Below, in pieces: positions 37,711 to 56,080 of a stretch of 64,000 bases of DNA. Source of the DNA: a virus. The notes under the pieces are model-generated. The model saw only the letters and a program-made list of their open reading frames with translations. It made no database searches and was not told the origin of the DNA. The stretch covers positions 116,566 through 180,565 of the IMG/VR virus record IMGVR_UViG_3300048694_001005. The stretch is one strand, 5' to 3'. Both the position numbers and the translations under genes were made by a program. How positions within the stretch are numbered: position 1 is the stretch's first letter; every line of letters begins with the position of its first letter.

Positions 37711-37976
37711 GCAAATACGAACCAAGAGTAAAAGAAATACGCGAGTTAGCTGACGCCATGAATTGGAAGATCAGTTGGCGCCGACGCGGTTCACGTGTCT
37801 ATGTAACTGTGATTACAAAGGATGGTAATCCGCTGTTGGGTGGGTATGATAATGTTCGAGAGTTTTTACAACGGTATTATAAAAATGTAGAAATAACCGC
37901 AGGTGGATATGGACGTTGGCATTTTTTGGTATATGACCTAATAGAATTACTAAAAGGAGAATGCAGTGCAGATTGA
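37707..37976 (+). CDS. Hypothetical protein
   Basis: Coupled ATGA overlap. Confidence 0.5.
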   Translation: MSKYEPRVKEIRELADAMNWKISWRRRGSRVYVTVITKDGNPLLGGYDNVREFLQRYYKNVEITAGGYGRWHFLVYDLIELLKGECSAD

Positions 37977-38394
37977 TCTAGAAAAATACAAAGAGTTTGT
38001 GGAGGCAGTAACTAGCGAGCCCAGTAATAACCTAACAGCTTTTATGAATCGCTGTGACGAACTGGATGCTAACTATGACAATGGTCAGCATGGACCGAAT
38101 ATCAATGTTCCATTATTGCTTACCGCATGCCTGGGTCTTGCAGCAGAATCCGGCGAGTTCATTGAAATTCCCAAAAAGATCTTCTTTCAGGGTAAACCAC
38201 TCAACGAAGAAAACGTATTCCATATGAAACGTGAATTGGGCGACCTTCTTTGGTATTGGGTCAATGCTTGCCGTGCATTAAATCTTGACCCCAATGATGT
38301 CATTGCAGAAAATGTGCGCAAACTGGAAGCGCGTTATCCCGGTGGTTCCTTTAACGTATATAACAGTGAGAATCGTAAAGATGGAGACATATAA
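37966..38394 (+). CDS. MazG-like nucleotide pyrophosphohydrolase
   Basis: GLAAESGEF..I.KK, KRELGDLLWY, N..KL..RYP. Confidence 0.85.
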   Translation: MQIDLEKYKEFVEAVTSEPSNNLTAFMNRCDELDANYDNGQHGPNINVPLLLTACLGLAAESGEFIEIPKKIFFQGKPLNEENVFHMKRELGDLLWYWVNACRALNLDPNDVIAENVRKLEARYPGGSFNVYNSENRKDGDI

Positions 38395-38737
38395 TTTAGG
38401 TGATGATCTGGCAAAATGCCAGTGGTTGGTTAACAAAGTGAAGACCAGCGAAACCTATGCGCAGAATCTTTATGCATCTCTTTGTAATATGCGGTGGCAA
38501 CGAGCCGAAGCTTGGCCCATATTAAAGGGCGAATTATGTGGCTATACTTGGCGCAGTGCCGGTGGTTTGATAGCTGATTTGCGCGAAGAAGGTGATTACC
38601 TCACGTGGTATTGCAGTGGTATTGGCGATGATAAACTTACACAGGGATATGTAGGCGAGGGAGTAGTTACTGATGAAATACGTGATGATCTAAAACGCTT
38701 GGGATGGTTCCCTGTTCCCTACGACGATGATCTGTAA
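38360..38737 (+). CDS. Hypothetical protein
   Basis: YAQNLYA.LCN, WR.AGG.IA motif; start approximate. Confidence 0.55.
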   Translation: MTVRIVKMETYNLGDDLAKCQWLVNKVKTSETYAQNLYASLCNMRWQRAEAWPILKGELCGYTWRSAGGLIADLREEGDYLTWYCSGIGDDKLTQGYVGEGVVTDEIRDDLKRLGWFPVPYDDDL

Positions 38738-38770
38738 AATCAAGCGGTTAGAAAATATTTCATCAAAATA

Positions 38771-38810
38771 ATAAAAAATGCTTGACCGCAGGTATAAATA
38801 AAGTTATATT
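38771..38810 (+). promoter_or_regulatory. Composite promoter of tRNA operon 1
   Basis: TTGACC(38782)-17-TATATT with embedded TATAAATA; 32 bp identical to 45857-45888. Confidence 0.8.
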
Positions 38811-38832
38811 AGATGCACAGTTAAACAAAGAG

Positions 38833-38934
38833 ATGAACATGAAAACCTATTTCAACAACCAAAGCAATCAGCAAAATCAGAGTGATAATAACTCTGATAG
38901 CGCACGGCTTTTGGGTGAAGGATGGGATGAATAA
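38833..38934 (+). CDS. Leader peptide rich in Asn/Gln/Ser/Asp (attenuator 1)
   Basis: MNMKTYFNNQSNQQNQSDNNSDSARLLGEGWDE*; codons 8-23 all N/Q/S/D. Confidence 0.7.
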   Translation: MNMKTYFNNQSNQQNQSDNNSDSARLLGEGWDE

Positions 38935-38957
38935 GTAACAACAGATTCCAACAAAGA

Positions 38958-38987
38958 CCCCAGAAGCCCAAAGCGACTGGGGTTTTT
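38958..38987 (+). terminator. Attenuator terminator 1
   Basis: CCCCAG/CTGGGG + TTTTT; left arm also pairs with 38906-38915. Confidence 0.8.
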
Positions 38988-38996
38988 CATTGCTGT

Positions 38997-39099
38997 ATGT
39001 GTGGCGCAACGCGGGCGCGGCAGGCACATTAAACATCTGTAAAAAGGGCGGCCTGGTGGATGAACTCCCTCTTGTGGGACGAAAAATACCAGCGTAATA
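38997..39099 (+). ncRNA. Unknown structured RNA, copy 1
   Basis: Aligns with 46120-46226 with compensatory changes in four helices. Confidence 0.7.
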
Positions 39100-39105
39100 T
39101 TTTGT

Positions 39106-39182
39106 AGGGGTGAGATGCGACGGGAAGCATACCAGCCTTTGAAGTTGGGTCTTAGTGGGTTCGAATCCCTCCACCCCCGCCA
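39106..39182 (+). tRNA. tRNA-Gln(TTG)
   Basis: Anticodon arm CCAGC-CTTTGAA-GTTGG; TTCGAAT; CCA. Confidence 0.85.
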
Positions 39183-39202
39183 AAATGTTAAGTGTTATTT
39201 GT

Positions 39203-39289
39203 TCCGGAGTACCCGAGTTGGTAGCAGGGGGCAGACTGTTAATCTGTTGCGCGGAAGCGCCATCGCTGGTTCGAGCCCAGCCTCCGGAG
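39203..39289 (+). tRNA. tRNA-Asn(GTT) with long variable arm, no encoded CCA
   Basis: GCAGA-CTGTTAA-TCTGT; acceptor TCCGGAG/CTCCGGA. Confidence 0.85.
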
Positions 39290-39303
39290 CAAATAACATT
39301 TAT

Positions 39304-39379
39304 ACCGTAGAGTCCACCGGGTGGTGATACCTGACTGTCTATCAGGTCGCGGCGGGTTCGAGTCCCGTCTACGGTGCCA
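39304..39379 (+). tRNA. tRNA-Asp(GTC)
   Basis: CCTGA-CTGTCTA-TCAGG; CCA. Confidence 0.88.
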
Positions 39380-39385
39380 AAATTT

Positions 39386-39472
39386 GGAGACGTGGCTGAA
39401 TTGGTAAAAGCGTCGGATTGCTACTCCGAAGACCGAAAGGTTGCGCAGGTTCGAACCCTGTCGTCTCCGCCA
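39386..39472 (+). tRNA. tRNA-Ser(GCT)
   Basis: TCGGA-TTGCTAC-TCCGA; long V arm; G73-CCA. Confidence 0.92.
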
Positions 39473-39509
39473 ATATCGCAATAAATACAGCATTAACAAG
39501 GAACATTCA

Positions 39510-40214
39510 ATGAAGCAAGTTTATGGCTGGTGGTTTCCTGACTGGGAACAACATTTTCAAGATTATTTCAAAAGCTTTTCTAAACAATGTAAAGAAATTC
39601 CCTGCCCCTATCAAAAGGCACAAAGAGATTTTGCATTACAATTTGTAAAGAAACATCGAAAAATAATAGATGTAGGCGGCAATGTAGGTACGTGGAGTCA
39701 TCCACTTAGTAAGATATTTGCAGAAGTTCATGCATTTGAGCCGCATCCAGAGAATCGTGAATGTTTTCAGCGCAACATGGAAGCAGTTAAAAACTACACT
39801 CTATATCCCTATGCGCTAAGTGAACGCGCTGGTCGTTTTCCACTCTATATACATGATACTAGCTGCGGTAATATAAGTTTAAACCTAACAGGAGTATTGC
39901 AGGGCCCTACTCCAGATATCAGCAAGCCTTCAATGGAACATATCAAAACTATTGAAGTTGAAGTACGAACCTTAGATAGTTTTAACTTTAGCGAAGTTGA
40001 TTTTATCAAGATTGATGTGCAAGGGCACGAGTTTGGTGTGTTGAAAGGTGCCACGGAATTATTGAGGATGCAAAGTCCAGCTTTAGTTATGGAATTAGCC
40101 ACACGAACACCTGAGGAGATTGCAGAAAAGAATTCTATCACCCAATGGTTACAGCAGTTTGGTTATGTGTTACGTGGCAATAGAAATAAAGAAACAGTTT
40201 ACACTAAACAATGA
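39510..40214 (+). CDS. FkbM-family methyltransferase
   Basis: IIDVGGNVG, AFEP, FIKIDVQGHE..VL.GA. Confidence 0.85.
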   Translation: MKQVYGWWFPDWEQHFQDYFKSFSKQCKEIPCPYQKAQRDFALQFVKKHRKIIDVGGNVGTWSHPLSKIFAEVHAFEPHPENRECFQRNMEAVKNYTLYPYALSERAGRFPLYIHDTSCGNISLNLTGVLQGPTPDISKPSMEHIKTIEVEVRTLDSFNFSEVDFIKIDVQGHEFGVLKGATELLRMQSPALVMELATRTPEEIAEKNSITQWLQQFGYVLRGNRNKETVYTKQ

Positions 40215-41029
40215 CAGTTAGCTGTTATTTGCAGGGCACAAGTAAGGGTGACAATATTGTTAGACTCTTTGCTGGTGGGTGTGCTGGCACTTTAGCTCGC
40301 ACCACAGACTACATACAGACGCGACTGCTACCAAGTACTCCGGTTTTTCTCTGGGGATGTTTGCGTGGCAGTGATTTAATACTCAAACAATGCCTAGCAA
40401 CAGGGCATGAATTTTACTATGCGGATAATTGTTATTACGGTAACACGGATTTTTTACGTATAACACGAAACGGACTGCAAAACACTAAGTTTATCCAACG
40501 CCACGGTGATAGGCTCAGTAATAACCCAGTCAAAATTAAAAGTTGGCGTCGCAGTGGTTCACATATTGTGATTTTGCCGCCAACAGAAAGCTTTGCTCAA
40601 TTGTTTGGCAAGCAAACCTGGGTGCAGGATACAGTAAATGAATTAAAGCAATACACCGATAGGCAGATCATTGTACGTTACAAGCCCAACGAAACGAAAA
40701 TAGGCTGGGAAAATGGTTACATGGTAAATGCTGGCGCTATAACAAGACAGGATGCTACGACACGTAGTTTACAGCAGGATTTAGCTGATGCTTGGGCAGT
40801 GGTGGCATTTCAAAGCAGTGCGGTCTGGGAAGCAATTGCGCAGGGTGTGCCGGCATTTGTTGATCCCATGAATGCTGCTAGTGTGTTAGGCAATACAGAT
40901 TTAAGCAAAATTGAAACGCCCGTGTATCCGGATCAGGAACCGTATTTTAGGCATATCAATTATTGTCAGTTTACAAGAGCGGAGATAGCAAGTGGCTTCG
41001 CTTGGCAGATTTTGAGCACAGCGGTATGA
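40211..41029 (+). CDS. Capsule-biosynthesis/GT-B-like protein
   Basis: YADNCY, IIVRYKP, VVAFQSSAVWEAI..GVPAF. Confidence 0.55.
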   Translation: MTVSCYLQGTSKGDNIVRLFAGGCAGTLARTTDYIQTRLLPSTPVFLWGCLRGSDLILKQCLATGHEFYYADNCYYGNTDFLRITRNGLQNTKFIQRHGDRLSNNPVKIKSWRRSGSHIVILPPTESFAQLFGKQTWVQDTVNELKQYTDRQIIVRYKPNETKIGWENGYMVNAGAITRQDATTRSLQQDLADAWAVVAFQSSAVWEAIAQGVPAFVDPMNAASVLGNTDLSKIETPVYPDQEPYFRHINYCQFTRAEIASGFAWQILSTAV

Positions 41030-41175
41030 ACGCTCACTCCTGTGGAGGTCGGATGGGAGTGTCTGGTGCGTGTGGGCGAGCCGACGTCAATCTACATTGC
41101 TTCTTTTGATGATAGGCCAGAAAGTGGGTGCAGGGGGTTCGAATCCCTCAATCCCACCTCAAATATAAATACGTG

Positions 41176-41625
41176 ATGCACATTACAGAAATAGAAGATC
41201 AGGAAGATAAAGTTGGTGAGGCCATGGAGAGTTGGTTTGAGATGTGGCAACCCAGTAAACAGATACCCATAATCTTATCTGCTCCTGAAGCAAAGGATTT
41301 TAAAACAGCTAATGCCGACACCATTTATCGCTGTTATGTTTTGACACGGGATGGTAAGATACGTGGTCAAAAGAAGAATTCAAAGGTGGCAGTTTATACC
41401 ATGGATCAGCGCATGGCTCATGAGTTTTATCATTCACTGGACATTGCAAACAAATATATTGTTGTGGCCAAGCAATTCCATCCCAAAGATTTGATACTGA
41501 ATTTCAGTGCATTTGCTAACAGCAAAGGTCGCAGTGGTGGCTGGGACGAAAAAGAGTTATGGATGAAACCAACTCCATACTATACTTCAGTGCAGCCCAG
41601 CGAAATCGTATTCAGAAGTAAATAA
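41176..41625 (+). CDS. Putative late virion protein
   Basis: ATG 41176 after TATAAATA (41164-41171); MHITEIED start. Confidence 0.55.
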   Translation: MHITEIEDQEDKVGEAMESWFEMWQPSKQIPIILSAPEAKDFKTANADTIYRCYVLTRDGKIRGQKKNSKVAVYTMDQRMAHEFYHSLDIANKYIVVAKQFHPKDLILNFSAFANSKGRSGGWDEKELWMKPTPYYTSVQPSEIVFRSK

Positions 41626-41627
41626 TT

Positions 41628-41719
41628 GGAGAGTTGGCAGAGCCCGGCTTATTGTACCGCATTGGAAGTGCGGAGGTGCGTTTACGTGCCCGCGAGTTCG
41701 AATCTCGCACTCTCCGCCA
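41628..41719 (+). tRNA. tRNA-Ser(GGA)
   Basis: CCGCA-TTGGAAG-TGCGG; long V arm; CCA. Confidence 0.92.
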
Positions 41720-41721
41720 AA

Positions 41722-42000
41722 TTATTTGTAACCAATACGATTAAGGATATTAATAGCTCTATTGCGCAGTTTAGTTTCAAACTGGCTTTCAGTTAATACA
41801 CCTTTTTCCGTGTTACATTTTCTGCAGGTAACTTGCAGATTAGCATATGATGTGGCACCACCCTGTGATTCAGGAACAACGTGGTCCAAGTGTACTTCAG
41901 ATTTATCCAAGTCCACACCACAATAAACGCAACGTAACCCATCGCGTTCAATTACCATGCGACGCAGGTTAACGGGGATTCGTTCTTTTGTTTTGGACAT
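41722..42000 (-). mobile_element. Free-standing HNH endonuclease
   Basis: RDGLRCVYCG...HLDHVVP...GG....NL...CRKCN; antisense, right after tRNA. Confidence 0.88.
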
Positions 42001-42171
42001 ATCGTTATTTACTTTGGTTGATGTACCAAATTAAGAATCTCCGCCTACAGGACGCTGTAGGTATGATAGCTGCGACTCCGATGGCACTGCGGGGTCTGGA
42101 AATACCGGATTTTAGTCTCCGGTGCAACCGTCAAGCCGGGAAAGAAACCATAACAGGTGTCAGCGAACAAT

Positions 42172-42243
42172 TGGGGTGAGACTGGGAGTCACACCTGCCT
42201 CTGAAGCAGGATGGAGTTGGTTCGAGCCCAACCGCCCCCGCCC
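42172..42243 (+). tRNA. tRNA-Gln(CTG)
   Basis: CCTGC-CTCTGAA-GCAGG; T arm GTTGG-TTCGAGC-CCAAC; ends CCC. Confidence 0.8.
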
Positions 42244-42266
42244 AGTGATTCAAGCTAAATACTGAC

Positions 42267-43442
42267 ATGAGATCCTACGAATTTTTAAACGAAAACATCA
42301 GTGATGATATGTACCTGCTGCATCTGGCCCGGGACCTAAAACAGGCGGTCTTCAAATGGTGGGTGATACACGGCAAGATAGATTCAAAAAAAAAGGTATT
42401 GGTTGGCAAAGTAAAAGATTTGGTCACGACCCCTTATCAGGGCGATAATCCCAATATACCAGAACTATTTAATACCAGAATTTATATTGGTGACCCCTAC
42501 TATGACTGGGAGGGGCGGCGAGCCGGCGCCTATGCCAGCTCTAGTGAAATAGTTTTACGTGATAAAGACAGAATAAGAGAAAAAACATTTGCACATGAAT
42601 TAAGGCATGTGTTAGATAGCATATCTTTGTACATCTATAAAGGAAATAGACAGAGAAAACGAGACCCAGAAAACACTTGGTCCAGTGATCTCGAGCTTGA
42701 TGCGATATTCACAGAAGTTTTGCATAGTATCTATGAACAGTTAATCTTCGATCAAGCGTACGGAAACCCAAGGAAAGAAACTCGTTCTAGTAATTTGATT
42801 CGAACCGTTGACAAGGCATTCAATTGGTTCGGTGATCGGATAACATCTTTGCAAAGTGGTGATGCTCGAGATCAAGCGCTCTATAAAAACTATCGGCGCA
42901 AGGCCATGACCTACGCAGTACATGTCTATGACAACGCACAATCTTATCTGGAGAAAAACCCAGTACAAATAAATTGGAATGAACGACAAAGACCCGCCTC
43001 AGGTTGGACACAAGGCTATGTACCAATAAACCTAAATGTGCGTTCGCTGGTGAGATTTTATCTCTGGGATCAGGCCCGGAAAAATCCCAGCCTATACAAT
43101 ATGTCGCTGGGTCAACTCAAGCAGTACATAATCAACTCTCCGGATGTGGGGGATTACGCGAAATACGGCGATGGTAAAACGCCAAAAGAAGACATCATCA
43201 AACTCATGAACTACAACCACAAAAATGCAACGTTGTTGAATCGATATGCAGGGGAATACTATGTTGATGATGAAAATGACAGTGAAGAGGACCAAGAATT
43301 CTATTCCGATATGGACCCTTATGAAATACAATTGGCCGATGGTACTAGGATGATAGTCCCCAGCACCATAATATCGTACACAAATCCCAACTATAACTAC
43401 GAATATGATGAACGAGGACGGAGACGTTATGAAAATACATGA
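42267..43442 (+). CDS. Putative virion protein with HExxH motif
   Basis: MRSYEFLNE start after TAAATA; FAHELRH. Confidence 0.55.
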   Translation: MRSYEFLNENISDDMYLLHLARDLKQAVFKWWVIHGKIDSKKKVLVGKVKDLVTTPYQGDNPNIPELFNTRIYIGDPYYDWEGRRAGAYASSSEIVLRDKDRIREKTFAHELRHVLDSISLYIYKGNRQRKRDPENTWSSDLELDAIFTEVLHSIYEQLIFDQAYGNPRKETRSSNLIRTVDKAFNWFGDRITSLQSGDARDQALYKNYRRKAMTYAVHVYDNAQSYLEKNPVQINWNERQRPASGWTQGYVPINLNVRSLVRFYLWDQARKNPSLYNMSLGQLKQYIINSPDVGDYAKYGDGKTPKEDIIKLMNYNHKNATLLNRYAGEYYVDDENDSEEDQEFYSDMDPYEIQLADGTRMIVPSTIISYTNPNYNYEYDERGRRRYENT

Positions 43443-44367
43443 AATCATAACTGAGCTACGACGCCACGCTGATAGATTCGAGCGTAAACCCGAATTGCAG
43501 GAACTTTTTGATTATTTGAGAAGTTTTGATCAAAGCCAATTACAAAACATGTTTGTTCACGCATCGGAGATTCCCAAAATTGGATTGAAACCAACTAAGC
43601 CAATAACTTATGCTGGTACCATAGAACCACAGGGAATCTATACTTATAGAGCAATCGATTATCTTTCGTGGATGAAAAAACATGGTCTGACAGGGTTTGG
43701 CGGCTCTTTTCCCTTTGTTACCGTGCTAACTGTAAAATCTGACACAAAGTTTCTCGACGCGGAACATTACGAACAAATAATCGAAAAGTTGAAATCTCAA
43801 AGTGCAGATCCTCCTGGCTCAAAAAATTGGAAGATCACCGCGGCGCAGGTAAACCACTATCTTCAAAGATTGGGATATGGGTTTGTACAAAGAAGATTGC
43901 CCGGAAACCGAGTATCAAGCGCCAAAGAATATGTTATATTAAGCCCAAAATATATTGACACTATGAAACAATTTGAGGTGCATAAATCACCAGCTAACGG
44001 TTCTTATCCTATTCGTGATTTTGATGCTACCGCTTGGATCGCGTCCAAGGAGTATAGAAAAAAACTAAAGCCATACCAAGATTTCGCAAAAACACACCCC
44101 GAATTAAGGGGTTTTGATTTTAATGAGATGTCGCCACGCAATATTTCAGCACTAAAGTTATTGATTTATGCACTCAAGAATAAAAAAGTATTGGATCGAC
44201 GTCAGGAAGAAGCATTGGTTGCTTATAGAACAGCTGACACCCCTTCGGACCCAGAATATACTCACGAACTCTTTGACATCTACAAAAAAGAAGTATTAGA
44301 TCCGCAGGGTCTCAAGCCTAAACTGACGCCGACGGAGTTGGCTAATGTGGCTAGGGTAGTAAATTAA
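43429..44367 (+). CDS. Putative virion protein
   Basis: MKIHEIITE start. Confidence 0.55.
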   Translation: MKIHEIITELRRHADRFERKPELQELFDYLRSFDQSQLQNMFVHASEIPKIGLKPTKPITYAGTIEPQGIYTYRAIDYLSWMKKHGLTGFGGSFPFVTVLTVKSDTKFLDAEHYEQIIEKLKSQSADPPGSKNWKITAAQVNHYLQRLGYGFVQRRLPGNRVSSAKEYVILSPKYIDTMKQFEVHKSPANGSYPIRDFDATAWIASKEYRKKLKPYQDFAKTHPELRGFDFNEMSPRNISALKLLIYALKNKKVLDRRQEEALVAYRTADTPSDPEYTHELFDIYKKEVLDPQGLKPKLTPTELANVARVVN

Positions 44368-44378
44368 CTAATCCATTT

Positions 44379-44468
44379 GGAGAGTTGGCAGAGCCCGGTT
44401 TATTGCACCTGATTCGAAATCAGACATACCGCAAGGTATCATAGGTTCAAATCCTATACTCTCCGCCA
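44379..44468 (+). tRNA. tRNA-Ser(CGA)
   Basis: CCTGA-TTCGAAA-TCAGA; long V arm; CCA. Confidence 0.9.
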
Positions 44469-44472
44469 TAAT

Positions 44473-45171
44473 TTACTCCTTGTTTCTTTTGCATCGATCA
44501 AAGTGCCAACGATTCATAATGGTATTTCCGCCCAAAAAACCACAATGCGGGCATTGAATCTTTGGTACTGTTCTCTTTCTATGAGTAATGGAAAGACATT
44601 TGTCACCATGCCACCGACTATAATTTCCAGCATCAACAATTTTGCTGCAATGTGGGCATTGTTTTTTGATTTTATTTTGAAAGTGATGTTTATTTCTTGA
44701 AACAAGTTCGTTCTGCACAGCCCTTGAAAGTGTGCCATCTAAAAAATTATGAGTTCCCTCCTCTACACGCCTTCTACTGGTTTCTCCTTGGATGCGTCCA
44801 CCCAAAAAATGGTGTGTTCCGGCTTTAACCGCATCACTTGCATGGCTAGTGCCGTCGGCTCTTCTGAGTAAATGATGAGATCCTTCGTTTACCAATCGCC
44901 TTGCCAAATCCTTGGCATCATTGCTAATTTCTTCGTGAGTCTTACTCATCCTATTATTAATCCGAAAACATGCTCCCCAATCTCCCTGGGAGAAATGTAT
45001 GTCATAATGTTTTTGAATTGTGACGCATTTCAAATTATTTGGGTCATTGTTATCATGATTGCCATCTAAATGATGGATCTCATAACTTCTACCGGTGTGA
45101 TCTTTCGGGATTTTACCAAAGTGATTTTGGTAAATTTTACGATATTTTTTGGTTCCGCAATAAATACACAT
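44473..45171 (-). mobile_element. HNH homing endonuclease with C-terminal Zn-finger repeats
   Basis: YEIHHLDGNHDNNDPNNL; CPHC...RWH..RC repeats; SD AAGGAG. Confidence 0.85.
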
Positions 45172-45235
45172 GCTGGTGCTCCTTTCAAGCATTAGAGTGG
45201 TCGAGAATTGATACTTCTGTGGACCACACTTATTT

Positions 45236-45685
45236 ATGCTGATAATGATTAATTCAATTTCCGACCCCCTATTGAGATACATTAAGGACGATCCCGTCAG
45301 ACCAAATTTATCTACTGAGTTTCGAGTAACTGATAATAGAATTGTGTTAGCTTTGGTGGATCAAGATGATTTAGATATTAAGGTACGAGCAATGTGCTGT
45401 GTAAGTTTTCATGATTCGGTCCCACAGAGATTGGATGACTTGCTACAAACATCTGATTCCCCATCTATTTGTCTTTTCTATACAATCTGGAGTTACGTTG
45501 CTGGTGCAGGTAGAACGCTGATATTTGAAGCAGTGCGGCATATACAGGAAACACGACCCAATATACATAGATTTGTCACGCTCAGTCCCAAAACAGATAT
45601 GGCACGACGTTTTCACATACGTAATGGTGCAGTAGTGTTTAGGGAAAATCCCGAAACAGTCAATTACGAATACGTTAACAGTTGA
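45236..45685 (+). CDS. Hypothetical protein (possible GNAT-like)
   Basis: FYTIWSY..GAGR.LI, VTLSPKT.MA..FH..NGA. Confidence 0.5.
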   Translation: MLIMINSISDPLLRYIKDDPVRPNLSTEFRVTDNRIVLALVDQDDLDIKVRAMCCVSFHDSVPQRLDDLLQTSDSPSICLFYTIWSYVAGAGRTLIFEAVRHIQETRPNIHRFVTLSPKTDMARRFHIRNGAVVFRENPETVNYEYVNS

Positions 45686-45718
45686 CATTTATTTTAGATA
45701 TATGTATTATAGGAACAT

Positions 45719-45812
45719 GGAGAGTTGGCCGAGTGGTCGAAGGCACCTTCCTGCTAAGAAGGCATACGGGCATAAACCTGTATCGAGAGTTCGAATCTCT
45801 CACTCTCCGCCA
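45719..45812 (+). tRNA. tRNA-Ser(GCT), second copy
   Basis: CCTTC-CTGCTAA-GAAGG; own promoter TTGACA(45682)-17-TATTAT. Confidence 0.92.
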
Positions 45813-45856
45813 TAAAGTTTTGATTTGGTTGACATAAATAAATTTAACCAAAAGAA

Positions 45857-45896
45857 ATAAAAAATGCTTGACCGCAGGTATAAATAAAAGTATAGT
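45857..45896 (+). promoter_or_regulatory. Composite promoter of tRNA operon 2
   Basis: TTGACC(45868)-17-TATAGT with embedded TATAAATA; duplicate of 38771-38802. Confidence 0.8.
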
Positions 45897-45933
45897 AGCA
45901 ACATAGGAATTTAACTTTTAAACGGAAACAAAG

Positions 45934-46053
45934 ATGCAACACTTAAGAACACATATAGAGTTTACATTGAAACCAGCGATGACCGCACCGGCCTCATATT
46001 GGCTCGTGATTGGACGCGGTGAATGTGGATTCAGGGAGTTTTTGCAGATGTAG
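45934..46053 (+). CDS. Leader peptide of attenuator 2
   Basis: MQHLRTHIEFTLKPAMTAPASYWLVIGRGECGFREFLQM*; all amino acids except Asn and Asp. Confidence 0.65.
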   Translation: MQHLRTHIEFTLKPAMTAPASYWLVIGRGECGFREFLQM

Positions 46054-46079
46054 CATCAAACAGATTTAATATGCAAAGA

Positions 46080-46110
46080 CCCCGAAGATCCCAAAGACTT
46101 CGGGGTTTTT
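46080..46110 (+). terminator. Attenuator terminator 2
   Basis: CCCCGAAG/CTTCGGGG + TTTTT; left arm also pairs with 46027-46046. Confidence 0.82.
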
Positions 46111-46119
46111 CATTGTAGT

Positions 46120-46226
46120 TAGTGTGGCGCAACGAGGGCGCAGTGGGCACTATAAACATCCACTAAACGGGCGGCCTTGGTGATCAACGTGCGGCGATAA
46201 CGCATTAGTAAAACCCAAGCGTAATA
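46120..46226 (+). ncRNA. Unknown structured RNA, copy 2
   Basis: Paralog of 38997-39099 with covariation. Confidence 0.7.
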
Positions 46227-46351
46227 AAGTAGATTCTTTAAGGTCTGGCCGTTACCAGCCTGGCAAAAACGGCGACAGAATCTACTTTATTACACACATT
46301 CTGGAACCAAATGGGAGTGAAATGTCCGTGGCGGAGTGTGTTAAACAATAT

Positions 46352-46426
46352 GTATCGGTGGCTGAAAAGTTAGGCATCCGCCTGCAAAGCGGATTTATGG
46401 GATGGCAGAATTCCTCCGATACTCCA
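46352..46426 (+). tRNA. tRNA-Cys(GCA), atypical T loop
   Basis: TCCGC-CTGCAAA-GCGGA; acceptor GTATCGG/CCGATAC, T73-CCA. Confidence 0.8.
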
Positions 46427-46432
46427 AACAAT

Positions 46433-46522
46433 GGCGGGTTCGCATAGCGGCGATTGCAGTGGTCTCCAAAACCACCGATGAATATACCATCCACGGGAGT
46501 TCGAGTCTCTCACCCGTCGCCA
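46433..46522 (+). tRNA. tRNA-Trp(CCA) with long variable arm
   Basis: GTGGT-CTCCAAA-ACCAC; extra arm GATG/CATC; G73-CCA. Confidence 0.82.
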
Positions 46523-47184
46523 TACATTGAGTCAAATAACTTTATTCGTTGATGTAGGTCACTTAACGTGATTGACGATTTGGCTCGCTTTTTTTGATTT
46601 TCTTTATGTCGAACTAATTTACAGTTCGCGGGATGTGCGAGTAGTTTTGGATCAATTTTATTTTTGAACCCATCGCTTACCGAATAAAGATGATCACGTG
46701 AGATACCGTTAGTATTTTTAATTCCGGATCTAGATCCAGGAGTGGAATACCAACCAAACTCTTTAATCATTTCGGATGCCCCAATAAACCAATTTGGATA
46801 TTGGGATATTGAAAAATTAAATCGGCATTGATATCCGTATTGATTTTTTGTTTCCTGCACAGAAGGATGAATAGTTTTTACAGTTGGTGAATACCACTGC
46901 TTACCTGAAATCTTGCAGGTACAAAGGTAAATTTTTGTAAATGGTTCAACAAAGGCAATTTTGGATTTAACTCGTTCTTGCGGATTGCGTCGTTGGTGCT
47001 CTCCAAATTGGTTTTTGATAGTAGTTTTTTTACCGATGGTATATTTGAGTTTTGCTAGGTGGTCGTCGGTAATAACACGACTGTTGGCACAGCGACGAGA
47101 ACAGAATTTTTTGTTACCCCATTTACTGTAACTATTGAATACGATATTGCATTTGGGGCAGATGGCTTGAATATATTTGTTCAT
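46510..47184 (-). mobile_element. Putative homing endonuclease (Zn-finger + HNH-like SRDH domain)
   Basis: CPKC...FCSRRCANSR; GISRDHLYSVSDGF...HPANC; stop overlaps tRNA-Trp 3' end. Confidence 0.7.
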
Positions 47185-47294
47185 GTTTGTTTCCCTTAAA
47201 TAGTGCTGTAGGGACAGTTCAGAGTTTCCCCTGAATTGATTTGTTGTTCTAGCAACAAATCTTACCTACTCAAGTATTTATACCAGTTAAATAT

Positions 47295-47770
47295 CGGCTC
47301 AGTGATCGTGCGCAAGCACACAGACGGAGGGACTGCTGGAGAAAGTGTCCTGGGCGTGATGCGCCCGTCGACCATTCGGGTCTAACTCCAAAGAGCGACC
47401 ATTGTCGCAATACCCTGTTGCCAGTAATGGCTAACAAATGAAAAGCGTCCTAAAACGATCGGCGGGGCAAAACTTGCGACATAAAAATTAAGCCAAATGG
47501 CTACGGAATAGCGGTCAGCGCCAAGAGAGAACGTGAGCCACCCAGTGGGATGGGAGTTGAAGGCTCTTGGGACTCAGCCCCGCCCCCAACAGGGCTAGAC
47601 GCCAGAGTTGAGTACGCGACGTGTGTCCGAGGTAAAGAATTATGGTTGCACACTGAGTGAAGATGCCTCCTCTGCGCGAGACAATCCAGTGAGTCCCCTT
47701 AGCGAGGGATAGCTGGGCGCCCAACTTTCAATGCCGGCGGTTTCGCGTGTAACTCCACGTGCCGGCTCCA
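47295..47770 (+). ncRNA. Candidate large structured ncRNA
   Basis: About 480 nt GC-rich, no credible + strand ORF, many helices including long-range CTCAGTG/CACTGAG. Confidence 0.5.
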
Positions 47771-47778
47771 ATTATAAT

Positions 47779-47858
47779 GCCTCTTTAGCTCAGTCTGGTT
47801 CTAGAGCGTCGTGTTGATAACGCGGGGGTCCTTGGTTCAAATCCAAGAAGAGGCACCA
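47779..47858 (+). tRNA. tRNA-Ile(GAT)
   Basis: Loop TTGATAA; canonical cloverleaf; CCA. Confidence 0.92.
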
Positions 47859-47866
47859 ATTTAAAT

Positions 47867-47944
47867 GCTGCGATGGCAGAGGCGGTCCTATTGCGCCGGT
47901 CTGAAGAACCGGATATGTCTGTTCAACTCAGACTCGCAGCACCA
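47867..47944 (+). tRNA. tRNA-Phe(GAA)
   Basis: CCGGT-CTGAAGA-ACCGG; CCA. Confidence 0.9.
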
Positions 47945-47954
47945 TTACATTTTT

Positions 47955-48031
47955 GTCCCTATAGATTACGTTGGTTAGATCGCTGGCCCTTCAAGCCGGA
48001 AGACACGGATCGTCGCCGTGTAGGGACGCCA
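47955..48031 (+). tRNA. tRNA-Glu(TTC)
   Basis: CTGGC-CCTTCAA-GCCGG; atypical T loop; CCA. Confidence 0.82.
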
Positions 48032-48038
48032 ATATTAA

Positions 48039-48128
48039 GGGCGATACTGCCTGCGGGCGCGGGCGAGTATCCTGGAGTAAGGATATTTACAGCAAACCAA
48101 CTAATTGGTTCAACTCCAATATCGCCCG
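48039..48128 (+). ncRNA. tRNA-like RNA with anticodon arm replaced by ATCCTG/AGGAT-TACAGCAA domain
   Basis: Acceptor GGGCGAT/ATCGCCC, T arm ATTGG-TTCAACT-CCAAT. Confidence 0.65.
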
Positions 48129-48141
48129 CCTTATACAATAC

Positions 48142-48216
48142 GGGGACAGCGAAAGGTCGCGGATCTGCCTTGCAAGCAGATTGTCTACAAGGGAGCGTTA
48201 CCCTTGGTCTCCACCA
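48142..48216 (+). tRNA. tRNA-Ala(TGC)
   Basis: TCTGC-CTTGCAA-GCAGA; G3:T70; A73-CCA. Confidence 0.82.
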
Positions 48217-48242
48217 AATTAAATAGTGCGATACGATTCAGT

Positions 48243-48329
48243 GAAGGGTCGGCGAAGATGGTGAGTGTCGCGGCGGTCTGTAAAACCGTTACTTAAGAAC
48301 CGTAGTTTGTTCGAATCAAACACCCTTCA
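48243..48329 (+). tRNA. tRNA-Tyr(GTA), no encoded CCA
   Basis: GCGGT-CTGTAAA-ACCGT; long V arm; acceptor GAAGGGT/ACCCTTC. Confidence 0.82.
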
Positions 48330-49260
48330 CTGAGTCGTATTGATTTACCATAGAGATTAAATCTTCATATTTAATTGATGATTTAGATTTTTTTACTCCG
48401 TTGAGCCTGTGGGGCATTAATTCACAATTGCATGGATGTGAGATATAATAAGGATCATAATTATATTTGATGGCGTCTGATATAGATACTTTGTGATCCC
48501 TTGATAATCCATCAAGATTCCATCTGCCAGTTTTGCCCCCTGGAGCATAAAATCCTACCCTTTTTAAGAGCTCTATGTCGAATAAATCTGGATAATCATA
48601 AACGTTAAAGCAAAATCTATATTGCGATCGTTTATTTGAATGGAATTTCCGGCATGGGTTACAAAATTGCAACTGCGTTCTGGCTATGAATAATCCCTTG
48701 CAGTTTTTACAAGAGCAATAACAAATTTTGGAAAATGGACCAGATGGATTTACATTGATTCTTTTGATTCTACTTCTTCTATGTTTGTCGGCGCAACAAA
48801 GTTTCGCATCTTTTCTATTTAGATGTAATGATTTACATTTCCTGCATTTGAACGTTTTAGTTTTCTTATTGGATTTAGATTTTAAGGTTTGAGAAATCTT
48901 ACTTTTGGTTGTTTGGGTTACATTATACCCGTTCTCTATACGTTTTTTATTGGATATTTTGGCAGCACACTTATGTGAGCAAAATCGATTTTTTCTTTTT
49001 GAGTAGATTAAAACCTCACAACAATTTTCGCATTTTTTTGGAGATCTGCTATAATCGTTAATCCTTTGTGTTTGAGATTTTTCTAATTGGTTCTTACGAT
49101 TTAATATGGATTTTTGAGATCCTAATGAACGTTTAACCCTATTAAAGCCATCTTTTGTATGTGACGCTAGATAATGTGAGTGAATTCCTTTTGCAGATCT
49201 TACATCTTTACAAATTACGCAAGAGCAAAGTGCTGAAAAATAAATATGGTTGCTGGACAT
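48316..49260 (-). mobile_element. Putative homing endonuclease (Zn-fingers + SRDH domain)
   Basis: Multiple CxxC; LSRDHKVSISDA...HPCNC, paralog of 46510-47184; overlaps tRNA-Tyr 3' end. Confidence 0.7.
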
Positions 49261-49337
49261 GATTCGTTCCTTTCGAATTGTGTTGATGTCTAGGGCCAGT
49301 AGATGTTGACGCATCGTGACTGGCACTAAATTATTTA

Positions 49338-49366
49338 GTCAGGTTCGAATCCTACCTGATCCACCA
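49338..49366 (+). pseudogene. Orphan tRNA 3' fragment (T arm + acceptor strand + CCA)
   Basis: AGG-TTCGAAT-CCT-AC-CTGATCC-A-CCA with no matching 5' half upstream. Confidence 0.6.
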
Positions 49367-49398
49367 ATTAAAATGTTGCAGCGCACATAAATATCAGT

Positions 49399-49575
49399 AT
49401 GGATCGCGAAGACTTATTAAACGAAATCACAGCAGGTTTGCCCAGTGACAATGCTCACATAGCACGTTGTCTTGAACTAGCGGCTAATGAACCTGATGAT
49501 CTCATACGTGCATTTGCTCGATTGTGGCTGGAACATAACTGTGTAGCGATTGCTCGCAGACTGTTAGAACAGTAA
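49399..49575 (+). CDS. Small hypothetical protein (58 aa, not in ORF track)
   Basis: After CATAAATA; MDREDLLNEI... Confidence 0.55.
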   Translation: MDREDLLNEITAGLPSDNAHIARCLELAANEPDDLIRAFARLWLEHNCVAIARRLLEQ

Positions 49576-49581
49576 TCTCTT

Positions 49582-49659
49582 CGGTATATAGCGCAGCCCG
49601 GTAAGCGCACAGGTCTGGGGGGCCTGGGGTCGAAAGTTCAAATCTTTCTATACCGACCA
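49582..49659 (+). tRNA. tRNA-Pro(GGG)
   Basis: CAGGT-CTGGGGG-GCCTG; CCA. Confidence 0.9.
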
Positions 49660-49670
49660 ATTTAATCAAT

Positions 49671-49746
49671 GGTGACTATAGTGTAGTGGTCTGCACCGAA
49701 CGCTGTGAACGTTCTAGTGAGAGTTCAATCCTCTCTAGCCACCCCA
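49671..49746 (+). tRNA. tRNA-His(GTG)
   Basis: GAACG-CTGTGAA-CGTTC; G-1:C73; CCA. Confidence 0.9.
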
Positions 49747-49901
49747 AGAATTTCCTAGGCAGGCTGAACACCTGCGACAAAGTACTTCGCTCAGGTTAAT
49801 GGCCCAAACTCTACCGGCAAACACTCAATAGCTGAGCAGCATGGGGCAGGTCCAAATCCGTGTAATGCGGAGCTCAGTGGCGAAGGAAAGGAAACAGTTT
49901 T

Positions 49902-50024
49902 AGGATGCCTACAGCAATCAAATTGCCTTCTAAGCCGTGGACGGGGGTTCGATTCCCTCCGCTCTCCCCAATAATCTCTATGGAGAGTGTAGCTTAATGG
50001 TAAAGCACCGTAACGTGCATCCTG
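49902..50024 (+). ncRNA. Circularly permuted tRNA-like RNA (Arg TCT loop) inside AGGATGC/GCATCCT stem
   Basis: 3' half (CTTCTAA loop, T arm, CGCTCTC-C-CCA) precedes 5' half (GAGAGTG, D arm). Confidence 0.65.
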
Positions 50025-50055
50025 TGTTTATATTAAAATGGATACTAAATACTGC

Positions 50056-50772
50056 ATGCGCCTTTATGAAATAGACGAAGCAGGACTAAAAAAGCAAATA
50101 CTTGCACGGATTAATCAATCTGGACTACAGATGGTGCCTTTTAGGCTGCGTGATAATAGTGTATCACCTATAGTTTATTGGTCACAAAGATTCTTTGCTC
50201 TTGTAAAGCTGGGCACTGTAAACATGCCTTTTTATTTGAGTTCTGGAGAAGGCGGTAAGAAAAATGTTCCTGCTGGTAAATGGTATCCATTTTTTGGAAT
50301 AGGAGCAGATGGCTGGCTCAACAAATCTTCTGAGCAAGATATTGTCGCGTATTATAACAGCCCAATGTTAAAAAAGGTATCGCAGCAGTTGGATCAAATT
50401 ACTGGAGATTTGAGACCATACACCAACGTATTTCCACTAATAAACTCTACAACATTATTGGATATGGTAAACAAAGATTTAAACCCCTTGACTTACGATT
50501 CTCCAGAAGATGTGTCAAAAAATATTACGGATACAATTGCTAAAATACAGGGCCAAAACACACAGCAAAATACACAAAATACGGTGCAACCTCAATTGGT
50601 AAAACCTATCATAGATAAACTTATACAGGATTATGCCGGTAGGAAAATTGCTTGGAATGACATGATTAAGCAAATTGAAGACTTAATCAAAAAACGCCCG
50701 GACATAAAAGATAAAATCGTGAGTTATTTTAATTCACATCCCAGTATTAAGTCTTATATTAAAAATAGTTAG
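50056..50772 (+). CDS. Putative virion protein
   Basis: ATG 50056 after TAAATA; MRLYEIDE start. Confidence 0.55.
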   Translation: MRLYEIDEAGLKKQILARINQSGLQMVPFRLRDNSVSPIVYWSQRFFALVKLGTVNMPFYLSSGEGGKKNVPAGKWYPFFGIGADGWLNKSSEQDIVAYYNSPMLKKVSQQLDQITGDLRPYTNVFPLINSTTLLDMVNKDLNPLTYDSPEDVSKNITDTIAKIQGQNTQQNTQNTVQPQLVKPIIDKLIQDYAGRKIAWNDMIKQIEDLIKKRPDIKDKIVSYFNSHPSIKSYIKNS

Positions 50773-50784
50773 TCAAAAATTTAT

Positions 50785-50861
50785 GCCCCTGTACGTCAGT
50801 GGACTAGACTACCTCGCTTCGAACGAGGGAGACGGAGGTTCGAATCCTTCCAGGGGTGCCA
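50785..50861 (+). tRNA. tRNA-Arg(TCG)
   Basis: CCTCG-CTTCGAA-CGAGG; CCA. Confidence 0.9.
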
Positions 50862-50869
50862 AAGTTTTT

Positions 50870-50979
50870 AGGATCCTTCCAGCAACTAAAATCCAAACCG
50901 CGATACGTTGGTTCGAATCCAACCTGCTGGCAACAGCAGTAGCCAAGTGGTTAGGCAGCGGTCTCAAAACAGGATCCTG
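50870..50979 (+). ncRNA. Circularly permuted tRNA-like RNA with tetraloop-closed acceptor stem
   Basis: ACCGC, T arm, CTGCTG-GCAA-CAGCAG, D arm, GCGGT; flanked by AGGATCCT x2. Confidence 0.72.
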
Positions 50980-50987
50980 TATTATAT

Positions 50988-51065
50988 GTTCCCATCGTCT
51001 AGTCTGGCTTAGGACACCCGCCTTTCACGCGGACAACACCGGTTCAAATCCGGTTGGGAACGCCA
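50988..51065 (+). tRNA. tRNA-Glu(TTC), second copy
   Basis: Loop CTTTCAC; CCA. Confidence 0.9.
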
Positions 51066-51129
51066 AAATTGAATGACGCTTGACTTTGTATGTCAAATGT
51101 ATACAATAGAATGCAAAGGTAAATTTATC

Positions 51130-51531
51130 ATGGAAATGATTAAAACATATAACGCCTTGCGCGGACCAGTGAACAAATTTGAAGATCTACTGGGACGCAC
51201 GTTATATCGTGTTTGGGAAAATGGACAAGAACTACACTTGTATCTAACTGATACTCATTATGTGCGATTTTATCACGCGCAGGATTGTTGTGAAACTGTT
51301 GAGATTGAAGATATCTGCGGTGATTTGACAGATTTAGTGGGAGAACCTTTGACCGAAGCTGAGGAAGTTTACGGTTATACAGGCCCAGAAACTCATGATG
51401 AATCCTATACCTGGACTTTTTACAGATTCGCAACGCGTCGTGGTGCTGTTACAGTTCGTTGGTACGGCAGCAGCAATGGCTATTACGGCGAAGGTGTAAA
51501 TGTAGACATCGTAGGAAATTATGAAGGTTAA
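51130..51531 (+). CDS. Conserved phage hypothetical protein
   Basis: H.QDCCE.V.IEDI.GDL.DLVG.P, YTWTFY, SNGYYGE. Confidence 0.65.
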   Translation: MEMIKTYNALRGPVNKFEDLLGRTLYRVWENGQELHLYLTDTHYVRFYHAQDCCETVEIEDICGDLTDLVGEPLTEAEEVYGYTGPETHDESYTWTFYRFATRRGAVTVRWYGSSNGYYGEGVNVDIVGNYEG

Positions 51532-51535
51532 AAAT

Positions 51536-51621
51536 GCCCCAGTGGTGGAATTGGAAGACACGCAAGTTTCAGAAGCTTGTGCCCACAAGGCCTAGGAGTT
51601 CGAGTCTCCTCTGGGGCACCA
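51536..51621 (+). tRNA. tRNA-Leu(CAG)
   Basis: CAAGT-TTCAGAA-GCTTG; long V arm; CCA. Confidence 0.9.
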
Positions 51622-51643
51622 TTTATTCAACGAGGAGTTTGAT

Positions 51644-52135
51644 ATGGCGCGACGCAAGGCAGATAAGCCTCAGGTAAAGCAATATGGCTACAAGATAGCT
51701 GTGGAAAGACACTGCGAAGATTCATATCACAGTGGCAAACAATACGGCGAGTGGCGCGAAAGCTACAGCAACCACTTGAGCTCCATTGCCACACACGATG
51801 ACGAATATCCTGATGTGGTTTCCATTCACAAAATTGAACCTGGACAAGCGGCATTGGTGGTATGGGTTGAATGGAGCACGGGTGATAGTTTTGGTCACTC
51901 TGATCGTGGTTGCACTGAGATCATTGGGCTGTTCCGTGATATGAAGTCTGCAGAATCTTTGCGTCAGCAGATTGAATCCTGGCGTCGTAACGATAAGGCT
52001 AAAAAGTGGGATGAGCAGCATTCGTATCACTTTAAAACTCCGGATGGTCAGGAATTTACTTCAGGCTTCGCACCCTGGTCCGGATACTTTGACAGTTTGG
52101 ATTCAGTAAACATTGACTCAGTAGGTGTATTTTGA
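51644..52135 (+). CDS. Hypothetical protein
   Basis: SD GAGGAG; 163 aa. Confidence 0.65.
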   Translation: MARRKADKPQVKQYGYKIAVERHCEDSYHSGKQYGEWRESYSNHLSSIATHDDEYPDVVSIHKIEPGQAALVVWVEWSTGDSFGHSDRGCTEIIGLFRDMKSAESLRQQIESWRRNDKAKKWDEQHSYHFKTPDGQEFTSGFAPWSGYFDSLDSVNIDSVGVF

Positions 52136-52249
52136 AATCAGCAGTGACAATGGCGGCGTGGACTCAACGGCAGCGTAGGATTCGTAAAACTGCGCGTCGT
52201 TGGGCCCGCAAAATGAAACATAGAAATTTAATTTATCAGGAGTAACACA

Positions 52250-52375
52250 ATGAAGGCAACGTATCGCAAGATCAACGATCGCACTCAAAACTCCAGCAAG
52301 TATCACAAGAAGGATGGCACCGCTGTTCGTGCCCAGCTTAAGGAACAGCTTCGCAAAGAAACTAACAAGGAGTAA
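52250..52375 (+). CDS. Small basic protein (41 aa, not in ORF track)
   Basis: SD AGGAG; MKATYRKINDRTQNSSKYHKKDGT... Confidence 0.55.
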   Translation: MKATYRKINDRTQNSSKYHKKDGTAVRAQLKEQLRKETNKE

Positions 52376-52466
52376 CATTATGAAAGCGAGTAAACCATAG
52401 TGTCACTTTAAGTCCCGTCGTTGGGTTTAAAGTTGGCACGGTAAATCAATTTTAAACGACAACGAT

Positions 52467-52544
52467 GGGGGTGTAGCAAATGTTGACTTTGCATCGGACC
52501 TTTAATCCGAATAGACGTGGGTTTGATTCCCACCGCCCTCACCA
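52467..52544 (+). tRNA. tRNA-Lys(TTT)
   Basis: TCGGA-CCTTTAA-TCCGA; CCA. Confidence 0.85.
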
Positions 52545-52549
52545 TTAAC

Positions 52550-52624
52550 TGGTCGCAAGCTTTAATGGTGAAGCAGTAGGCTCTTACCCTACAGAACACG
52601 GATCGTTACCGTGGCGACCAACCA
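52550..52624 (+). tRNA. tRNA-Lys(CTT)
   Basis: GTAGG-CTCTTAC-CCTAC; CCA. Confidence 0.88.
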
Positions 52625-52633
52625 TAATAGAGC

Positions 52634-52708
52634 CCGTTGTGTATGCTAAACGGTACAGCCCACGCAGTGGTGCGTTAGATGCTGGGTTCGAGTCCCAGCC
52701 ACAGCGGC
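52634..52708 (+). ncRNA. tRNA-like RNA lacking an anticodon loop
   Basis: CCGTTGTG/CACAGCGG stem, T arm CTGGG-TTCGAGT-CCCAG, ACGCA-GTGG-TGCGT tetraloop arm. Confidence 0.5.
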
Positions 52709-52731
52709 CTCTACTATGGTTTTTAAACAAT

Positions 52732-52808
52732 ACGCCTGTAGCTCAACTGGAAAGAGCGTTGGTCTACGAAGCCGAAGGTTGGGGGTTCGAATCCCTCCAG
52801 GCGTGCCA
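52732..52808 (+). tRNA. tRNA-Arg(ACG)
   Basis: TTGGT-CTACGAA-GCCGA; CCA. Confidence 0.92.
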
Positions 52809-52846
52809 ATTACATTTGACTAATATAAATATTAGTCATACAATGC

Positions 52847-53707
52847 ATGTTTATGACAGAACGAATTTTAATCATGGGCCTGCCCGGTGCTGGTAAAACC
52901 ACACTGGCTGCGGCACTAAAAGAATATATTGAAACTAATAGCAATCCTAACCACATGCGGTTAGAACAACTGATGTTTGCCGACGGTATACCCAGTGTTT
53001 GGCATGCTAAGGTGGACTGGTTTAACGCTGATGATGTCAGACGTAAATTCAACGACTGGGATTTCAGTAGTGAAGGAAGAATACGGCAAAGTCTACGCAT
53101 GTTTCAGTTTGCAGTGGCCTGTACCGGAGATTTTGTTATTTGCGATTTCGTTTGCCCGTTGCAGGAAATGCGTAACAATTTTAAAGCTGACTGGACAGTA
53201 TGGGTAGATACCATAGAGGCCAGCAGATATAGTGATACTAACAAAGCATTTGTTAATCCCACAGTCTATGACTTCAGGGTAACAGAAAAGAACGCAGATC
53301 ACTGGGCCGCATTTATTGGTGACCACATTTTACGCAACCAACGTAGACCAACCTTTGACTGGCGCAAGCCTACCGTGCAAATGCTAGGCCGTTGGCAACC
53401 CTGGCATCAGGGTCATAAAGCGTTGTTTGAACGACTGTTGAAGCGTACTGGACAAGTAGTAATTCAAATACGTGATTGCCAGGGCTGGAATGGCAGTAAT
53501 CCATTTGCCCTGGAACAGGTAAAGAGCTTTATACGTCGTGATCTTGATCCAAAATATCAAGGTCAGTATGAAATACAAGTAGTACCCAATATTGTTCATA
53601 TAGGTTGGGGGCGCGGTGTTGGATATACTTCAGGCGAGGAACAGTTTGACGAGTCTATTACTAGTATCAGTGCTACAGAGATACGCAAAGATCTGGGATT
53701 AACTTAA
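52847..53707 (+). CDS. Adenylylsulfate kinase-like P-loop domain fused to cytidyltransferase-like domain
   Basis: MGLPGAGKTT, NADDVR, DFVCP; C-terminal LGRWQPWHQGH, YGRG-like WGRGVGY. Confidence 0.75.
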   Translation: MFMTERILIMGLPGAGKTTLAAALKEYIETNSNPNHMRLEQLMFADGIPSVWHAKVDWFNADDVRRKFNDWDFSSEGRIRQSLRMFQFAVACTGDFVICDFVCPLQEMRNNFKADWTVWVDTIEASRYSDTNKAFVNPTVYDFRVTEKNADHWAAFIGDHILRNQRRPTFDWRKPTVQMLGRWQPWHQGHKALFERLLKRTGQVVIQIRDCQGWNGSNPFALEQVKSFIRRDLDPKYQGQYEIQVVPNIVHIGWGRGVGYTSGEEQFDESITSISATEIRKDLGLT

Positions 53708-54406: not shown

Positions 54407-54413
54407 ATATTCA

Positions 54414-55813: not shown

Positions 55814-55905
55814 ACTACTTAGATTTGACATAAACGTCATAGCATGTTAGACTGTGTAAATAGTATGTAAGAAATAGGCAGTAGATAGTTACATAAAGAA
55901 TAAAT

Positions 55906-56075: not shown

Positions 56076-56080
56076 AATTT

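Follow-up and report, generated by a model that had tools for sequence, protein, structure and literature searches.

A short leader open reading frame (ORF) lying ahead of a large phage tRNA array very probably forms part of a transcription attenuator through which ribosomes report tRNA availability over nearly the whole genetic code and switch on the array. On this reading, drawn from sequence and its conservation, the phage would probably make more tRNA when ribosomes stall for almost any tRNA. The attenuator, here termed unit 2, lies in a 64,000-nucleotide window, by which we mean the whole stretch of DNA analysed: the last 64 kb of the 180.6-kb virus record IMGVR_UViG_3300048694_001005 (positions 116,566 to 180,565), the end of the window being the end of the contig. 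The record has an estimated completeness of 51%, and its DNA polymerase is nearest to those of T4-like jumbo phages (Sinorhizobium phage Phosso, 49%; Atu_ph07, 46%). All tRNA genes of the contig are on the plus strand, from 39106 to about 62800, as are the features described below unless otherwise stated.

Unit 2 begins with a putative sigma70-like promoter at 45856-45896, recognized by its match to consensus (TTGACC-17-TATAGT, 45868-45896; -35 at 45868-45873 and -10 at 45891-45896), which contains a T4-late-like TATAAATA at 45879-45886. The leader ORF follows at 45934-46053, behind a weak Shine-Dalgarno signal. As the original prediction described, its 39 codons specify 18 amino acids, leaving out Asn and Asp, and we count 32 distinct codons among them. 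An intrinsic terminator (3:4; 46075-46114), identified by folding and sequence, begins 23 nt past the leader stop and consists of an 8-bp stem (46080-46087 with 46098-46105) and a U-run (46106-46110). The leader RNA has a folding z score of -4.2, and two further pairings are predicted within it. In the antiterminator (2:3; 46027-46091), supported by folding and by a comparison of own with swapped pairings, 46027-46046 pairs with 46072-46091 at -22.7 kcal/mol versus -21.5 kcal/mol for the terminator, which bears out the long alternative helix proposed earlier. In the anti-antiterminator hairpin (1:2; 45933-46057), predicted by folding of the untranslated leader (probability paired, 0.74), the two ends of the ORF pair with each other, which ties up region 2. 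Beyond the terminator come a pseudoknotted RNA element (46119-46228), defined by conservation and covariation, and a 17-bp perfect inverted repeat (46221-46237 with 46277-46293; 46221-46293 overall) that precedes the first tRNA and is a possible processing stem; many relatives have a comparable stem after the RNA element.

Sequence comparison places a paralogous unit 1 at 38770-39101, with a 33-codon leader (38833-38934), a terminator (38953-38991) and its own copy of the RNA element (38996-39101). The two units have a promoter in common, 33 bp being identical (38770-38802 and 45856-45888), one base beyond the 32 reported originally, and they share a terminator frame. An independent assembly that stops just short of unit 2 also contains unit 1, with 99.99% identity over 35236-45826. 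Codons 8-23 of leader 1 are 16 consecutive Asn, Gln, Ser or Asp codons. By tRNA searches, the tRNAs between units 1 and 2 (39106-45812) are solely for those amino acids: Gln-UUG, Asn-GUU, Asp-GUC, Ser-GCU, Ser-GGA, Gln-CUG (42171, a weak call), Ser-CGA and Ser-GCU, the last of which has its own promoter-like site at 45682. The array after unit 2 (46352-62769) holds tRNAs for Cys, Trp, Ile, Phe, Glu, Tyr, Pro, His, Arg, Leu, Lys and Ala, along with Gly, Val, Thr, Met and Ser-UGA, and may continue past the contig end. Searching to that end, we found no Asn, Asp or Gln tRNA after unit 2, in line with the original prediction, and neither Ser-GCU nor Ser-GGA; the sole Ser tRNA there has the UGA anticodon. 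Promoter-like sites inside this array (48421, 49027, 52816 and 55825), which are no more frequent than in shuffled sequence, may drive the distal tRNAs, in which case strict control by unit 2 may extend no further than the first six or seven genes.

We collected relatives through the downstream RNA element rather than the leader, which makes the set independent of the leader. About 210 related freshwater phage loci were recovered from viral and metagenome contigs, the larger of them in 330-365-kb genomes. GTDB genomes held no element, yielding one pattern match without the rest of it, and in cultured phages nothing truly matched the unit or the RNA element. A leader not conserved as an ORF had been named beforehand as one outcome that would count against the reading, and the leader proved to be conserved. 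Among the 181 loci with enough upstream DNA, 180 have an ORF that starts with ATG, runs for at least 25 codons and ends 3-50 nt before a terminator of the same type, versus 12% in shuffles; the median gap from stop to terminator is 25 nt, and the remaining two frames contain 3-4 stops. These ORFs give 136 distinct peptides, falling into 22 clusters at 40% identity and 45 at 50%, with a partly conserved motif in the largest clusters. In many relatives (for example L006, L054, L118 and L016), the leader ATG sits ~7 nt past the -10 or TATAAATA box, which suggests leaderless translation there. Two elements in one genome occur here alone among 215 hits and eight whole records: the eight other records, four of them near complete, carry one element apiece, and scans by terminator, promoter or neighbouring proteins returned no close relative with both units. 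An indel-size test on the leaders was discarded as circular.

Is the broad composition of the leader selected? For leader 2 by itself the caution attached to the original prediction was right, since at least 18 amino acids are expected in 39 codons with P = 0.24. The same leader is less ordinary in its codons (P = 0.006 for at least 32 distinct ones) and in lacking both Asn and Asp (P = 0.012). Across the family, all 20 amino acids appear within ~44 codons in 24 of 45 clusters at 50% identity, against 1.1 (maximum 6 in 2,000 draws) for windows drawn from phage proteins, 1.1 for nucleotide shuffles and 1.4 for draws from the family's own amino-acid frequencies. The clusters are not fully independent of one another, and the excess persists at the lowest identity cut (13 of 22 clusters at 40%). 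Of 44 leaders, 31 contain a single Cys, whose position relative to the stop is scattered, and a residue lost at one leader site is usually still present elsewhere in both sequences. Given the peptides, synonymous codons cover 26.9 decoding classes versus 25.2 ± 0.2 expected. The comparison of dN/dS across homologous leaders, suggested at the outset, gave 0.47. These patterns point to selection on one codon per class and not on protein structure. Complete arrays pair a leader of 20 amino acids with tRNAs for all 20, and we read the leader family as a whole-code stall sensor.

To follow the switch, we folded leader RNAs with a ribosome placed at each codon; the resulting structures are equilibrium predictions, not kinetics. 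For leader 2, the antiterminator is predicted with the A site at codons 1-30 and the terminator from codon 31 onwards. The flip falls at codon 28-31 depending on the assumed ribosome footprint, giving a sensing window of about codons 2-30; Cys31 is inside it only under a 6-nt footprint, although tRNA-Cys is the first downstream gene. Across 46 representatives the flip is predicted 13 to 6 codons ahead of the stop, and in unit 1 at codon 22-25, directly after the run of 16 control codons. Antiterminator and terminator covary within each locus: own pairings average -18.6 kcal/mol in the family versus -14.1 kcal/mol for swapped ones (p = 7e-11). With the terminator arm of unit 2, leader 2 pairs better than all 45 other leaders. 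Without a ribosome, the terminator of unit 2 wins at full length in the folding predictions, with region 2 paired at 0.74, so that the 1:2 fold would favour termination; the effect is weaker in the family, where region 2 is paired at a mean of 0.64 and the terminator has a probability of 0.58.

The two units of this phage divide the code between them. Ranked by their share of Asn, Gln, Asp and Ser among the 136 leaders, leader 1 is highest (54.5%) and leader 2 lowest (7.7%, the next being 16.7%). Among 135 leaders, only leader 2 lacks all of AAY, GAY, AGY and UCY, which are decoded by Asn-GUU, Asp-GUC, Ser-GCU and Ser-GGA of the block after unit 1; 110 of 134 other leaders have all four, and none of the 134 lacks more than two. 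Of the 30 anticodon types downstream, codons 2-31 of leader 2 match 22-23, against 14-15 under the null (P at most 0.0007), and seven have no codon in the leader window. Codons 2-31 also include one codon read only by the first block (null 6.4, P = 0.008). For codons 8-23 of leader 1, the count of such codons is 16 of 16. Almost all Gln codons lie with unit 1; the exception in the leader 2 window is codon 2, present although both Gln tRNAs are in the first block, and many family leaders begin Met-Gln. The sole Ser codon of leader 2 is UCA, matching the sole downstream Ser tRNA.

The original prediction had proposed a broad tRNA-charging sensor that splits the code with unit 1. Breadth and division are supported by the comparative data on composition and by the codon/anticodon partition. 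Sensing of charging as set by amino-acid supply fits less well: the partition is drawn by anticodon, with Ser AGY/UCY on one side and UCA on the other, and because serine is divided in this way, the availability of particular tRNA species is a likelier signal than amino-acid supply. Extra tRNA would presumably not cure amino-acid starvation either, and the leader alone cannot distinguish an uncharged from a missing tRNA. Since an all-20 leader is the norm in the family, the best description of leader 2 is a whole-code leader from which four codon classes have been lost.

Relatives offer a partial parallel. Amino acids absent from a leader are also absent from the nearby tRNA block in 21 of 29 cases versus 11.2 expected (p = 0.0002), a result softened by truncated contigs and related rows, with four of 17 rows coming from one leader cluster; a complete genome turned out to have its 'missing' Cys and Leu tRNAs further along. 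A separate lineage (L043, with the same cassette in record G003) has a second specialized leader and terminator on the reverse strand ~2.1 kb upstream of the element. This second cassette is leaderless and has Ser-AGU, Tyr, Asp, Glu and Met codons followed by Ser-GCU, Glu, Tyr, Asp and Met tRNAs, and the main leader of the lineage keeps Asp and Glu only near its stop. The terminator of the second cassette is followed by a boxA-like motif and by a promoter-like site, the latter complicating a codon-split reading.

Together, these observations are compatible with the following sequence of events. Host RNA polymerase would initiate near 45903 with a ribosome following on the leader. Where decoding is fast, the ribosome would reach codon 31 to the stop and cover 46027-46046, the terminator would form and transcription would end near 46110. 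A stall at codon ~2 to 30, caused by scarcity of an aminoacyl-tRNA that has been cleaved, degraded or left uncharged, would instead mask the 1:2 hairpin; region 2 could then pair with the 5' arm of the terminator, and the polymerase would continue into the tRNA genes. In trpL or hisL the control codons are tandem; here they stand singly, so each stall may give a weak signal. The usual form of the family would be a single all-20-amino-acid leader ahead of a complete array. We surmise that the cassette was duplicated in this phage, with unit 1 taking the Asn, Asp, Gln and Ser (AGY/UCY) tRNAs and their codons and unit 2 losing those codons. More tentatively, the system could be a jumbo-phage monitor of the whole code in which loss of any tRNA, for instance to a host anticodon nuclease, triggers a full replacement set; such a monitor would be splittable, and its RNA element would represent a new class that sustains or processes transcription of a 10-17-kb array.

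The same anatomy could serve other purposes. That a stall at any of codons 1-30 yields the same fold, that single codons are weak sensors and that untranslated family leaders are only partly locked (terminator 0.58, region 2 paired 0.64) would all suit a ribosome-coupling switch sensing the general speed or shut-off of translation, through an initiation block or an attack on elongation factors or ribosomes, with codon content incidental. We consider this unlikely, as it leaves unexplained the excess of all-20 leaders, the synonymous diversification and the codon partition between paralogs, but it may operate alongside codon sensing. The RNA switch would also serve a nascent-peptide arrest sensor of the TnaC/ErmCL type, one that detects an antibiotic or small molecule within the exit tunnel, and a Trp ~20-25 codons ahead of the stop is widespread in the family. 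The clusters share no invariant arrest motif, though, and unit 1 joins a plain run of cognate codons to the same switch; with the anticodon-level matching also left unexplained, we regard peptide arrest as the least probable of these accounts.

Very little probability also attaches to the idea that the peptide or the ~210-nt terminated RNA is itself the functional product, with a constitutive terminator that either late-sigma transcription or a phage factor acting together with the downstream RNA would overcome. Selection on the peptide might be read from a dN/dS below 1 and from the motif of the largest clusters, which on inspection could be explained by an RNA hairpin; the peptides themselves diverge into 22 clusters at 40% identity but keep their composition, with Cys at shifting positions, and they have no PHROG match. 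As for bypass, a conserved basic ~53-aa protein is encoded beside the RNA element in roughly four in ten relatives and could be a factor of the kind needed, but it was not found in this partial genome, the RNA element lies past the terminator and cannot help to bypass it, and the antiterminator covaries with the terminator. Attenuation by tRNA availability remains our preferred reading.

The RNA element found after both units is 105-110 nt long, with strongly covarying helices and a pseudoknot. Its long-range pair is G-C in 39 of 52 sequences and A-U in 11 of 52, and helix 5 joins alignment columns 70-72 with 116-118; the invariant letters of helix 1 are partly forced by the search pattern. 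The element belongs to a previously undescribed family of ~210 loci confined to uncultured phage contigs, and Rfam contains no family for it or for the leader. Identities as glmS, c-di-GMP-I, HDV, hatchet or boxA were dropped for want of a model match or matching topology. In a comparison with nut/boxA and put-type antitermination signals, a canonical boxA at a fixed position near the element was not found, one loop bearing a loose resemblance. Because the element is made only on read-through, ahead of kilobases of mostly untranslated RNA, processive antitermination or processing is our candidate guess for its role. The ~53-aa ORFs lie between terminator and element (L146:8724-8879, L057:11832-11996 and 53 other distinct ORFs); their basic product has no PHROG family and is a candidate RNA-binding antiterminator.

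Leader-peptide attenuators are established regulators of amino-acid operons, as in trpL, hisL and leuL and the multivalent thrL and ilvGMEDA, and in E. coli pheM-pheST one lets aminoacyl-tRNA supply control part of the translation apparatus. Unit 2 is predicted to share with the trpL/hisL class a promoter, short ORF, 2:3 and 3:4 hairpins and intrinsic terminator, as well as control codons matched to the product (with Gln2 an exception and Cys31 borderline) and a switch set by ribosome position; the 1:2 hairpin, predicted for this copy and weaker in the family, is a candidate further resemblance. It differs in its output, which is tRNA genes and not biosynthesis, transport or synthetase genes. 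Its control codons are mostly single, with 17-18 amino acids covered in unit 2, and extend in the family over 17-20 amino acids and ~27 of 32 decoding classes, whereas trpL and hisL use runs for 1-3 amino acids, and unit 1, unlike unit 2, does have such a run. The unit is also encoded by a phage, has a duplicate with a complementary codon set and precedes a pseudoknotted RNA. Compared with pheM-pheST, where one amino acid controls synthetase output, nearly all codons are covered here and tRNAs are the output. The Rfam His_leader model reached only E = 4.2 here. The mechanism of attenuation at pheL has been described (PMC3082878), as has a two-tRNA T-box in Clostridium acetobutylicum (PMC11404447). 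As in T-box riboswitches, tRNA status would select between terminator and antiterminator, but T-boxes bind uncharged tRNA directly, for one or two codons and without the translated leader predicted for unit 2. Identity as a T-box was rejected, there being no Rfam T-box match at gathering or E-value threshold. We likewise rejected an arrest leader of TnaC, ErmCL or SecM type, given the 22 clusters at 40% identity and the shifting positions of Cys and other residues.

For decades it has been an open question why phages have such large tRNA sets, the choice being between codon compensation and replacement of depleted host tRNAs. An array conditional on stalling at almost any codon would fit on-demand replacement, and a 250-bp reporter makes this testable. 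Attenuation would be extended from one-to-three amino acids to the whole code with tRNA genes as output, in a regulatory sequence that apparently divided its job after duplication, and the switch offers a compact biosensor for tRNA loss. Host tRNA pools can be depleted or cut by anticodon nucleases during infection and replaced by phage tRNAs (PMC10264068); that paper covers tRNA sequence resistance, and the parts of its text available to us describe neither a sensor nor regulated expression of a phage tRNA array. Our literature searches, which reached few subscription papers, returned no paper on attenuators of phage tRNA arrays and nothing relevant on tRNA operons in general.

Several other features of the window deserve mention. 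Antisense ORFs (minus strand) inserted among the tRNA genes at 44473-45282, 46510-47184 and 48316-49326 comprise one HNH endonuclease and two members of phrog_23051. A QueE-like radical SAM gene lies at 22596-23459. Queuosine modifies the tRNAs of Asn and Asp and also those of His and Tyr, so this gene fails to explain the Asn/Asp/Gln/Ser block. tRNA-like elements below default thresholds were seen at 48039-48222, 49293-49366, 49876-50024, 50870-50979, 52635-52709, 59998-60436 and 60714-60800; some are T-arms only, there are weak Y-RNA-like or tmRNA-end-like matches, and one has a CUA anticodon. Within the array, an RNase P RNA-like gene at 58158-58416 (plus strand) matches Rfam RNaseP_arch with E = 3.6e-08, under the gathering score, and has both of two conserved core motifs in recognizable form. 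Finally, a tRNA-Ile with a UAU anticodon (60822-60917) would decode AUA without lysidine; AUA is codon 8 of leader 2 and also occurs in 64% of family leaders.
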